This document shows positions 114 to 3,875 of a stretch of DNA of 64,000 bases, piece by piece; position 1 is the stretch's first letter; every line of letters begins with the position of its first letter. This stretch comes from Minisyncoccota bacterium (GTDB lineage Bacteria; Patescibacteriota; Minisyncoccia; Phycocordibacterales; UBA1550), in the NCBI GenBank assembly GCA_041660105.1, contig JBAZWZ010000001.1, positions 523-64,522 of the forward strand, in the 5' to 3' direction. The translations under genes and the position numbers were made by a program. The notes beneath the pieces were generated by a model. The model searched no databases. It was not told the origin of the DNA and saw only the letters and a list, made by a program, of their open reading frames with translations.

Positions 114-650
114 TTATTTGGGGTTACATTGCATCACACAATTTACTAAAGAATGGTTCCATTTTTCTTTGCTATGTACCTATTTGACCGATAGTATAAA
201 ATAGGTACATAGTGGAAGTTGGGCGAGTATATGGTTGCGGATTTTTGGGGTTACATTGCATCACACAATTTACCAAAGAATGGTGGCGGTCCCCTTTTCT
301 TGAGGAGTAAACAACATACACTTAATATATGCTATAGCATATATTAAGTGTATGTCGGGGAATTAAGAGTTGGACGTTGGATGAGTTTGGAGCTGGGGAT
401 TTTTAGGGTTACATTGCATCACACAATTTACGAAAGAATGGTGTCCCATTTTCACCTTCTGTTATCAATTTCCGCTATCTACTTATACGATACTATAGTA
501 CTGTATAAGTAGATAGTAGTATATATAACACTTTTAGGCGAATGAACGGCTGAAGATTTTTGGGGTTACATTGCATCACACAATTTACGAAAGAATGGTG
601 GCTGGCGCGGGGGCCTCTATTTTATACTCTTTATCAAAAAAGAATTGCTT
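114..650. repeat. Tandem array of 4 direct repeats, each followed by a unique palindrome-containing variable segment; not a canonical CRISPR
   Basis: Conserved core (ATTTTT)GGGGTTACATTGCATCACACAATTTAC[T/C/G]AAAGAATGGTG at 120-157, 247-284, 405-442, 562-599. Each core is followed by a degenerate gTCCcaTTTTCtt tail. Periods are 127, 158 and 157 bp. The variable segments each hold a different near-perfect palindrome: tgtacctattt..aaataggtaca, catacacttaatatatgctatagcatatattaagtgtatg, ctacttatacgatactatagtactgtataagtag. Confidence 0.8.
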
Positions 651-1454
651 TTCTTTTAAGACCAGGACGATGGCAAAAATAAGCAATAATACTGTTTGAA
701 TAATTTTGCTGTCAGGATTTGTTGCAAATATTTCATTAAAATAGCCAGCTGTAATATGGAATATTATTACTACAAGAATATTTCTATTGGATTTATAATA
801 AAGCCAATTCATAATTAATACATACGGAATAATGCTGACCATAAAGTTCGCACTGTAGATCCAGCCTGATGCTACTAGGTTACTTTGGTAGTAGTCTTTG
901 ATAAATGAGAGCGGAACATGCCATATGGCCCAGAAGGCACCAAATATCATTGAGGTGTTAAACAGGTTGAACTTATTTCTCAGAGCGTCAGTCCCATAGG
1001 TGTGCCACGCTAATTCTTCAATAGTCGGTGCAAGTATTAACAAAAACCAGACAGGTAAAATTCCTGACGAAAAGGTGAAGTGCCCAGTAATAATAAATTG
1101 TGAAGGGCTATATCCAAACAACAATGATACGGCTTGCGCCAAGAGAATGCTTATTAGCATCAAGAAACAAGCCAAATAAAAATAGACTGGCTGAGCCATA
1201 ACATTGAAGAACCTACCAGTTAAATCCTTCCATAAGTTAGAATCTTTTCGTATAAGCCCAAACGCCAATATCATGGGACTTATCAATCCGACTAGCCCAA
1301 GAACACTGGCAATACTCATATATAAATCCCTGTATGGAGTAATATGACTTACGTAACCTGCAGCAGACCAAAAAGACCAAGGAATAATTGTTGCAAGACT
1401 GTAAAACAATACTGGATGTTTAAATTTGTTTATCATAATGAGGAGTAGGTACAT
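585..1454 (-). CDS. CPBP family intramembrane glutamic metalloprotease (CAAX protease / Abi, PF02517-like)
   Basis: 289-aa polytopic membrane protein with the EExxxR-like motif (TIEELAWHTYG), FxxxH (FWAIWHVPLS) and HxxxN (IFHITAGYFNE). The stop codon lies inside repeat copy 4 of the array. Confidence 0.7.
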   Translation of the reverse strand: MYLLLIMINKFKHPVLFYSLATIIPWSFWSAAGYVSHITPYRDLYMSIASVLGLVGLISPMILAFGLIRKDSNLWKDLTGRFFNVMAQPVYFYLACFLMLISILLAQAVSLLFGYSPSQFIITGHFTFSSGILPVWFLLILAPTIEELAWHTYGTDALRNKFNLFNTSMIFGAFWAIWHVPLSFIKDYYQSNLVASGWIYSANFMVSIIPYVLIMNWLYYKSNRNILVVIIFHITAGYFNEIFATNPDSKIIQTVLLLIFAIVLVLKEKQFFFDKEYKIEAPAPATILS

Positions 1455-1456
1455 CC

Positions 1457-1705
1457 CTACTTTTTCTTACTAGTTTTATTTTTTAGTATACCAACACTGG
1501 AAAGAGTATTGAGCGCAAACTCTTTCATCATGCTTGATTTTGTGATGTACAAACCTTTTGAACTATCGCCTACGAGCACAACAGTGTCGCCCGATTTAAG
1601 TTGAAACAAGTCTCTTGCTTCCTTGGGGATAACTATTTGTCCCTTCTCGCCTATTTTAGCTACTCCAAAATAGTAACCTTCTTCCTCACTCTTTTGATTT
1701 TTCAT
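1457..1705 (-). CDS. AbrB/MazE/SpoVT-family DNA-binding protein
   Basis: 82 aa; GQIVIPKEARDLFQLKSGDTVVLV matches the swapped-hairpin AbrB/SpoVT motif. A 3-bp gap to the downstream CPBP gene suggests a two-gene operon. Confidence 0.6.
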   Translation of the reverse strand: MKNQKSEEEGYYFGVAKIGEKGQIVIPKEARDLFQLKSGDTVVLVGDSSKGLYITKSSMMKEFALNTLSSVGILKNKTSKKK

Positions 1706-1723: not shown

Positions 1724-1768
1724 TTGTGTTGGTATAACTAGTATGATTAGTATAACAAATCATACTTT
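1724..1768 (-). promoter_or_regulatory. Putative promoter/operator of the AbrB-CPBP operon
   Basis: AT-rich region with inverted repeat agtatgatt..aatcatact and direct repeats tagtata / tagtataac just upstream of the AbrB start. Confidence 0.3.
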
Positions 1769-1785
1769 TCTTGTAAATACCCCCA

Positions 1786-1830
1786 AAAGAAAACTCCTCC
1801 CCTCTTGCAAGAGGGGAGGAGTTTCTTATT
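1786..1830 (-). terminator. Bidirectional rho-independent terminator after the TIR-like gene
   Basis: GC-rich stem ctcctcccctc ttgcaa gaggggaggag flanked by an A-run and a T-run. Confidence 0.7.
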
Positions 1831-1857: not shown

Positions 1858-2295
1858 CTATCTTCCAGCTTTTTTAGCAGCTTTCTCGATCCATGCACCC
1901 ATATTATTGTATCCATCCTCGTTGTTCCAAAGATAAAAATCGTAACCCTTAGGAATCATCCCGCATCGGTCTGTAGTATGTCCCTGTAAATCTTTAATTT
2001 TACTAACATCAATGCCAATTAGCCCGTTGCCAATTTCAATACTTTTTTCAATTTCGTATTTAACCCATTTACTTGAACAGGTTTTTTCTCCAACTAATAC
2101 AACAGTTACAGATGTCCCATTCAGTTGCTTGTCAATCCAGTTTTTAATTGCAGCATCGCCTTGTCTCTCTAATGTTTCAAAATCTGCAGCATCAATAAAA
2201 CCCGCTGACTCTTTCCCTTGGGTAACCCAACTATTTCTTACAACCATCGCCCGTGATACATCTTTATATTTGAAACTAAAAAATACTTTTCTCAT
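1858..2295 (-). CDS. TIR-like domain protein (DUF1863/TIR_2 family, ThsB-like)
   Basis: 145 aa. N-terminal VFFSFKYKD..VVRNSW and later TSVTVVLVG..SKWVKYEIEKS match the hallmark pattern of the prokaryotic TIR-like family that includes Thoeris ThsB. Confidence 0.65.
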   Translation of the reverse strand: MRKVFFSFKYKDVSRAMVVRNSWVTQGKESAGFIDAADFETLERQGDAAIKNWIDKQLNGTSVTVVLVGEKTCSSKWVKYEIEKSIEIGNGLIGIDVSKIKDLQGHTTDRCGMIPKGYDFYLWNNEDGYNNMGAWIEKAAKKAGR

Positions 2296-2305
2296 TAATT
2301 TATTA

Positions 2306-2698
2306 TTAATTCGTTACTAATATAACTGCGACAATTAGTGGCACATAGAAAATAAGAAGCGTAATTGAAAATGTTGAACAAATCCATCCGTTCTTTTCGT
2401 CTTTTTTATACTCACTAATATCCATTGAAAAATCAACGTCTTTTTCCTCCAATATTCTAACGTGATTATAAAGTGCCCTAAATGAACGCTCTTGAGAAAG
2501 AAAATACCCATCTAAAATCCAAAAAATAATAATTGGAAAATATATAACTAACGTGTGGCTGGAATCCAAATCCTTCATAAACAATGCAAGTAATCCTGCC
2601 ACCAACGAAACTGTCCACCCGCGAAGAAAAAACAGATTGCTAGCCATCCGACTTATAATAGCCTGTATTAATTCAAGATGTTTTATTTTGTTTCCCAT
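2306..2698 (-). CDS. Small 3-TM membrane protein, SLATT-like putative effector partner of the TIR-like protein
   Basis: Start reassigned to the internal ATG (MGNKIKHLELIQAI), because the longer ORF overlaps nrdB. 131 aa with predicted TM helices LFFLRGWTVSLVAGLLALFM, LVIYFPIIIFWILDGYF and ICSTFSITLLIFYVPLIVAVILV. 10-bp gap to the TIR-like gene. Confidence 0.45.
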   Translation of the reverse strand: MGNKIKHLELIQAIISRMASNLFFLRGWTVSLVAGLLALFMKDLDSSHTLVIYFPIIIFWILDGYFLSQERSFRALYNHVRILEEKDVDFSMDISEYKKDEKNGWICSTFSITLLIFYVPLIVAVILVTN

Positions 2699-2840
2699 AT
2701 TTTTTTGTTGACGCAAGGCGTAGTTATTTTGAATGCGATACAAGGCGTCGAGGGTGTGATATCGGGAAGCTGTACAACTAGTACTGCGACCCGATTCACA
2801 CCCGAAGACAACGCCGTAGCGCGTCAAAAGAACACGCCGA

Positions 2841-3875
2841 CTACCATTCGAGGGCGCCGCCAGTTTTGTATTCGGTAACCCTCGTCTCAAAGAAATTCTT
2901 CTCCTTACTCAAGTCTATCGCCTCTGACATCCACGGGAATGGATTCTCTACACCATACTGCACTGGCAAACCTACTGCCTCCAAGCGTCTATCTGCGATG
3001 TGCTCGATGTACTGCTTGAAGCCGTCGGCGTTCATCCCGAAGATACCACGAGGGAAAAGCTCGGTTGCAAAGGTGTACTCGAGTCCTACGGCACGCTTGA
3101 TGTGGCCGATCATCTTGTCTTGGAACTCCTTGGTCCAAAGCTCTGGTTGTTCCTCTTTGATCGTGTTGATGAGGTTGATACCGAAGTTCAAATGCTGTGA
3201 CTCGTCACGCATAATGTACTGGATCTGCTCTGCGGCGCCCGTGAGCTTGCCCTGACGCTGGAAGCCAAACATTACGGCGAACGATGAGTAGAAGAAGATA
3301 CCTTCCAAAATGAGCGAGAAGACGACGATGTTCTCGAGGAACTTCTGGTCGTTCTCGAAGGTGCCGGTCTTGAAGTTGTCGTCGAAGATGCCTTCGTTGA
3401 AGTTGAGGACGAAGCTGTCTTTGTTGTAGATAGCATCCACCTGACGATACATATTGAAAATCTTGCTCTCATCCATCGCGAGACTCTCTACGATGTACTG
3501 GTATGCGTGCGTGTGGATAGCCTCTTCGTATGCCTGACGGAGGATGTACATACGGCACTCAGGAGAGGTAATGTGCTTGTAGAACGCGAGGGCGACGTTG
3601 TTGGCGGCGATACTGTCCCCTGTCGTAAAGAAGCCAAGTACGGTCTCAAACGCCTGACGCTCGTCATCGGTGAGAACGTCCTTTGAGCGCCACTGCTCGA
3701 TGTCCTTTTGCATACTAATCTCCGTAGGAAGCCAGTGGTTCGCATTGCCCACAGAATACGCATCCCATGCGAATGTGTGCTTCATCGGATAGAGCTGAAT
3801 AACGTCAGCGTCTTTTCCGTTGATGATGCGGCGGTTGTTGATGTTTACTGGCTGGTCTCCTTTGGTAATTGGCAT
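2841..3875 (-). CDS. nrdB: Ribonucleotide reductase class I small (beta) subunit
   Basis: 344 aa; ferritin-like di-iron R2 motifs (EEAIHTHAYQYIVESL, RDESQHLNFG). Confidence 0.85.
   Translation of the reverse strand: MPITKGDQPVNINNRRIINGKDADVIQLYPMKHTFAWDAYSVGNANHWLPTEISMQKDIEQWRSKDVLTDDERQAFETVLGFFTTGDSIAANNVALAFYKHITSPECRMYILRQAYEEAIHTHAYQYIVESLAMDESKIFNMYRQVDAIYNKDSFVLNFNEGIFDDNFKTGTFENDQKFLENIVVFSLILEGIFFYSSFAVMFGFQRQGKLTGAAEQIQYIMRDESQHLNFGINLINTIKEEQPELWTKEFQDKMIGHIKRAVGLEYTFATELFPRGIFGMNADGFKQYIEHIADRRLEAVGLPVQYGVENPFPWMSEAIDLSKEKNFFETRVTEYKTGGALEW

Follow-up and report, generated by a model that had tools for sequence, protein, structure and literature searches.

Thoeris anti-phage systems of types V to XI were defined in December 2025 in a preprint (Yirmiya et al., bioRxiv 10.64898/2025.12.03.692087), which is the sole source describing type V. 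As defined there, type V consists of ThsB, a TIR protein, and ThsF, an effector with three transmembrane (TM) helices that is labelled "DUF2270". Two such systems, from Bacillus thuringiensis DAR 81934 and Bacillus sp. 1NLA3E, were validated in B. subtilis, and both of their ThsB proteins produce 3'cADPR upon infection. In the B. thuringiensis case, 3'cADPR is toxic when supplied from outside, and defence is lost with the Tad1 sponge. The Bacillus sp. 1NLA3E system also makes 3'cADPR, yet the added molecule does not intoxicate, so the match between signal and effector is not uniform within the type V family. The AF3 model of ThsF given there is a heptameric channel with positive pockets between the protomers. 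The preprint keeps ThsH, the SLATT effector of type VII, whose signal is canonical cADPR, apart from ThsF; the published signal of type II is His-ADPR. In the literature beyond Yirmiya et al., no mention of ThsF or DUF2270 in a Thoeris context was found. A second catalogue entry of relevance here is PDC-M50, one of 145 "guilt-by-embedding" candidates (Payne et al., bioRxiv 10.1101/2024.01.29.577857); no text on it turned up when the literature was searched for its name.

The window, ie the whole stretch of 64,000 nucleotides that was analysed, was matched by exact sequence to a contig of 133,907 bp in a Candidatus Paceibacterota (CPR) MAG. Close to one of its ends lies a pair of genes with the following layout.

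2306-2698, minus strand: thsF, three-TM membrane effector, 130 aa plus stop, ATG at 2698; PADLOC PDC-M50A.
2296-2305, minus strand: intergenic spacer between thsF and thsB, 10 nt, AT-rich, read from the sequence.
1858-2295, minus strand: thsB, predicted TIR-like sensor and signal synthase, 145 aa, ATG at 2295, stop at 1858.
1785-1821, minus strand: intrinsic terminator closing the two-gene operon, from its stem and fold energy.

Both open reading frames were found where an earlier note on this DNA had placed them, on the minus strand and 10 nt apart. The two genes are co-directional, with thsF first and thsB downstream, and the shortness of the spacer implies co-transcription. For the partner of the TIR gene the note had given 131 aa, three TM helices and no enzymatic domain; the helices and the lack of an enzymatic domain stand, whereas the length is corrected to 130 aa plus stop. 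The start of thsF at ATG 2698 is backed by the alignment of homologues, which disfavours the alternatives, namely a longer ORF from a TTG and the 145-aa JGI call. The strong hairpin terminator that had been ascribed to the pair is present. It has a perfect, G+C-rich stem of 12 bp (1794-1805 / 1810-1821) and a 4-nt loop, is followed on the minus strand by UUUUCUUUU, and folds at -41.1 kcal/mol (z -6.0). A search upstream of thsF for a sigma-70-like promoter found none. NCBI labels the product of the window's thsB just "TIR domain-containing protein" (window proteins MFA5996859-64).

In all likelihood the two genes make up an anti-phage system of Thoeris type V (ThsF + ThsB), which the Candidatus Paceibacterota bacterium acquired horizontally. 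Its identity as thsF-thsB follows from three independent links. Firstly, window ThsB is 80% identical to IMG 2642724563, a TIR protein listed as 'DUF2270 - Type V' in Table S1 of Yirmiya et al. Secondly, two TIR proteins with that listing were found verbatim beside genes of the ThsF family, one in Nitrosomonas europaea ATCC 25978 (L061) and the other on a Klebsiella IncF plasmid (L082). Thirdly, a protein 100% identical to the validated ThsB of B. thuringiensis DAR 81934 is present on two contigs of the B. cereus group, and the gene directly 3' of this ThsB encodes a ThsF of 141 aa (L090:3773-4198), to which window ThsF is 52% identical over 126/130 residues (E 3e-46). The B. thuringiensis TIR protein and effector carry consecutive IMG ids in Table S2 of the preprint. 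As for the acquisition, segment 1-2800 has a GC content of 32-40%, compared with 50-55% in nrdAB, which is consistent with a horizontal origin.

The architecture is already known, contrary to the novelty that the earlier note had implied: it is catalogued as PDC-M50 and has been experimentally validated as type V Thoeris. The window genes are adjacent and match PDC-M50A and PDC-M50B, the two models of the PADLOC candidate PDC-M50 (PADLOC-DB v2). For ThsF the match to PDC-M50A has an E-value of 5.3e-48 and covers model positions 1-128 of 134; for ThsB the match to PDC-M50B is at 1.7e-45.

The assignment of the 145-aa protein to the ThsB-type TIR proteins, which had been made from the letters of the DNA, was borne out by the Pfam model PF08937 (ThsB_TIR; 6.3e-23, with a score of 81.5 bits where the cut-off is 21.2) and by the PADLOC ThsB model (7e-56). 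Window ThsB shares 52% identity with the TIR domain of ThsB from B. cereus MSX-D12 (BcThsB). In the alignment F5 of the window protein pairs with F6 of BcThsB, and E81, in the sequence WVKYE, pairs with the glutamate of WVRYE, which is E85 by our own count. Ofir et al. 2021 and later work reportedly showed that E85 is the catalytic glutamate of the B. cereus protein and that BcThsB produces 3'cADPR. We infer that the catalytic glutamate of window ThsB, E81, is intact, and homology predicts an NAD+-consuming cyclase activity. Window ThsB falls in a BcThsB-like PF08937 cluster, whereas the validated type V ThsB proteins fall in other TIR clusters. The closest published relative of the window TIR is TIR 2 of P. 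aeruginosa L0872, which comes from a type III system.

Window ThsF was assigned to no family by Pfam or NCBIfam scans, and neither scan found an enzymatic domain in it. Hydropathy gives three TM segments, at about 22-41, 49-68 and 106-128. An AF2 monomer computed from 115 diverse representatives (pLDDT 97.1, pTM 0.86), which replaced a run on 25 close homologues (pLDDT 62), has helices at 3-40 and 46-81, forming a long hairpin, and a C-terminal TM helix at 112-129. Searches of the PDB by fold returned generic helical hairpins only. Two residues, R17 and E70, are invariant among the 115 diverse relatives, and the motif FWxLDxYFLxQERxFRxLY is near-invariant. The distribution of charge suggests an N-in/C-out topology, which would place the conserved N-terminal helix and the helix following TM2 both on the cytoplasmic face; the conserved basic residues K4, K6, R17, R26, R71, R74 and R81 are likewise predicted to be on that side. 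The family is large, with 783 matches in a word-indexed search and 4,797 clusters at 50% identity in an exhaustive profile search (E<=1e-3), and nearly all of its members are 130-140 aa long. In the records inspected, each ThsF homologue was annotated "hypothetical protein".

Rare natural fusions of ThsF were also observed. In P0140 an N-terminal SLOG cluster-2 domain (PF18163, 1.7e-15) precedes ThsF; P0141 resembles P0140 in sequence and lacks a Pfam SLOG match; in P0177 an 8xMP membrane domain lies ahead of ThsF (PF24838, 1.6e-27). These proteins may be single-protein variants that combine sensor and effector. The SLOG-ThsF fusion speaks for ThsF as a membrane effector under the control of a ligand derived from a nucleotide.

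The published label of the effector requires comment. Window ThsF does not match PF10028 (DUF2270) even at E<=10, and nor, by hmmscan at E<=10, does the validated B. thuringiensis ThsF, whose only match is a weak one to 8xMP (0.012). Among the 115 diverse relatives, 28 match PF10028 weakly, the best at 1.4e-5 and below the cut-off. Sub-threshold matches were also obtained to DUF3278 (PF11683, 36/115) and 8xMP (PF24838, 7/115). The window protein matched none of the three models, no member of the family reached a gathering threshold, and the homologue searches never returned a ThsF relative annotated with PF10028. "DUF2270" is therefore a loose label, and the relation of ThsF to DUF2270, DUF3278 and 8xMP would be one of superfamily level at best. 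Plasmid matches of the validated B. thuringiensis ThsB were examined for a neighbour with the Pfam label DUF2270, but the best of them (H34 and H35) lie in other Thoeris contexts, TIR+SIR2 and TIR+Macro. The practical consequence is for annotation: since the DUF2270 model is blind to ThsF, the validated protein included, HMM pipelines that rely on Pfam will miss type V systems.

Conservation of the pair was assessed by scanning one genome per GTDB species, which gave 80 loci from many phyla. About 34 of these are in Patescibacteria; the remaining ones come from Pseudomonadota, Planctomycetota, Chloroflexota, Actinomycetota, Bacteroidota and further groups. In 77 of the 80, a TIR gene with the orientation of thsF is found no more than 1.6 kb from it, usually 20-70 nt 3' of it, so the proposal that the pair is conserved as a unit in relatives holds. 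In two of the other three loci the contig breaks off directly behind thsF. Over these loci, identity ranges over 50-72% for the membrane protein and from 35% to 87% for the TIR protein. Eleven loci have two TIR genes, at least five TIR classes are in use, and ThsF proteins 64-72% identical to that of the window pair with several of them. One conserved effector combined with interchangeable TIR proteins is the pattern of Thoeris. The share of Patescibacteria among these closest species-level loci indicates that type V is common in Patescibacteria/CPR, which are episymbionts with reduced genomes.

Homologues of ThsF were also found on 141 plasmids, 40 of them from Klebsiella and 36 from Escherichia, as well as in small phage-like elements of Vibrio; in every case inspected they adjoin TIR genes. 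One such Vibrio element (L083, Vibrio phage 10N.286.55.A5_PE002), from Vibrio cyclitrophicus, is tectivirus-like, measures 14 kb, encodes an integrase and has a thsB-thsF pair at 1347-2635, and it follows that phage-like mobile elements carry type V Thoeris. In Aquincola agrisoli (L030, 4517-6898) a SLOG-like gene, recognised by eye, a TIR gene, thsF and a second TIR gene of another class stand in a row; the locus looks like a Thoeris cluster with several effectors, of the kind reported in the preprint.

Downstream of the pair the window contains the following further features.

1749-1777, minus strand (read from 1777 to 1749): promoter-like site ahead of the AbrB/CPBP pair.
1457-1705, minus strand: AbrB/MazE/SpoVT-type DNA-binding protein, directly upstream of the CPBP gene.
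585-1454, minus strand: CPBP/Rce1-like intramembrane protease, downstream partner of the AbrB gene.

The earlier note had grouped these genes with the TIR pair as a small defence island, a view that did not survive. The sole PADLOC match of the AbrB/CPBP genes is insignificant (0.0056, to a 2TM effector model), and the window neighbours AbrB, CPBP and NrdB are absent from all 80 other ThsF loci. From that absence it appears that the two-gene cassette moves on its own. On the other side of the pair, 147 nt (2699-2845, minus strand) separate the stop codon of nrdB from the start of thsF, and this spacer folds as a single long, imperfect hairpin (-63.7 kcal/mol, z -7.3). With about 50%, its GC content resembles that of the core genome and is unlike that of the island; the spacer could terminate nrdB, be a repeat element or mark the edge of an inserted cassette.

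Between the terminator of a 98-aa plus-strand gene and the 3' end of the CPBP gene there is a repeat array (86-600) of four direct copies with the core TTTTTGGGGTTACATTGCATCACACAATTTACNAAAGAATGGTG, spaced 127, 158 and 157 nt apart. Some 15-30 nt after each of copies 1-3 stands a palindrome that differs from copy to copy (172-212, 314-355 and 475-516). The spacing of the array is not CRISPR-like. The array has no Rfam match and its core occurs nowhere else in the window; from metagenome and viral collections, scans for the array returned only one other contig (L093), from the same metagenome sample.

On the type V reading, the system would work as follows. ThsB would be silent until phage infection is sensed, and once activated it would convert NAD+ to an isomer of cyclic ADP-ribose, of which 1''-3' gcADPR (3'cADPR) is the most probable. 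ThsF would probably be a ring-shaped homo-oligomer in the membrane. The signal would bind to its cytoplasmic face, where the conserved N-terminal helix, with R17, and the helix following TM2, with the sequence QERxFRxLY (E70, R74, Y77), are predicted to lie; R17, E70, R71, R74, Y77 and R81 are candidate residues of the pocket. Binding would open or disrupt the membrane, and the infected cell would die or arrest before phage progeny are released. For the window locus, homology to the validated systems is the ground on which we infer which signal is made, how ThsF oligomerises, where the signal binds and what defence phenotype results.

It is unlikely, though the chance is appreciable, that the pair is type V-like and either signals with a molecule that is not 3'cADPR, for instance a different isomer of cADPR or a conjugate of ADPR, or requires a second input. 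The Bacillus sp. 1NLA3E system is not triggered by exogenous 3'cADPR and the nearest published relative of the window TIR, P. aeruginosa L0872 TIR 2, is from type III, and the pairing of ThsF with at least five TIR classes points the same way. Against this, ThsF proteins as close as 64-72% to that of the window occur with several TIR classes, which is easier to understand if those TIR proteins share one signal. The 52% identity of the window TIR to BcThsB, reportedly a maker of 3'cADPR, also argues for that molecule. That a BcThsB-like TIR combined with ThsF in a CPR bacterium signals by a different or additional ADPR-derived molecule, and not by 3'cADPR, we consider improbable; the Bacillus sp. 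1NLA3E variant of type V is under suspicion of using such a molecule. If true, it would mean that subfamilies of ThsF are tuned to different signals.

Very unlikely, in our judgement, is an arrangement in which the TIR protein is itself a toxic NADase that depletes NAD+, the membrane protein serves as sensor, anchor or regulator, and there is no diffusible signal. Many bacterial TIR proteins are indeed NADase effectors, and this caveat on unverified TIR operons has been published. The window TIR, however, shares 52% identity with the TIR domain of BcThsB, a type I protein and the reported 3'cADPR producer, and the conservation of ThsF beside freely swapped TIR proteins is the effector/sensor pattern of Thoeris. 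Type V systems, moreover, showed phage-dependent 3'cADPR and a toxicity that was induced by the signal and dependent on the effector, according to the preprint. Hardly credible is the reading proposed in the earlier note, a TIR-SLATT system, which would correspond to Thoeris type VII, where canonical cADPR gates a SLATT pore-former. A small membrane protein does adjoin the TIR gene, TIR-SLATT systems exist and have been validated as type VII, and the SLOG-fused relatives of the effector echo the SLOG association that defines SLATT, but the Pfam models SLATT_1-6 matched neither the window protein nor its 25 + 115 relatives at E<=1-10, the PADLOC 2TM/SLATT effector models were unmatched, the effector has three TM helices where the SLATT core has two, and it shares 52% identity with ThsF, the effector of type V, to whose family it belongs.

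Both window proteins match the PDC-M50 models over their full length, PDC-M50 being a candidate to which no mechanism is assigned. With types VII (ThsH, SLATT) and II (ThsC, TM-Macro) the window pair shares a TIR sensor and a membrane-spanning effector thought to breach the membrane when the signal binds; its effector has neither a SLATT nor a Macro domain, and helix count and fold differ from those of both types. With type I (ThsA, SIR2-SLOG, and ThsB of B. cereus MSX-D12) it shares the ThsB TIR at 52% identity, the catalytic glutamate and probably the signal, 3'cADPR. The type I effector is a SIR2-SLOG protein that acts by NAD+ depletion, whereas the window effector is a membrane protein without SIR2 or SLOG from which membrane disruption would be expected; the pair is thus distinct from the type I and type II architectures, as had been maintained. 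The window adds one instance of type V Thoeris and opens no new biological question. With the validated type V systems it has in common the two-gene operon, a three-TM effector of about 130-140 aa (52% identical to B. thuringiensis ThsF) and an adjacent TIR gene on the same strand. It differs from them in host, which is Bacillus for the validated systems and Candidatus Paceibacterota (CPR) here, and from the B. thuringiensis locus in gene order, which there is thsB then thsF and in the window thsF then thsB.
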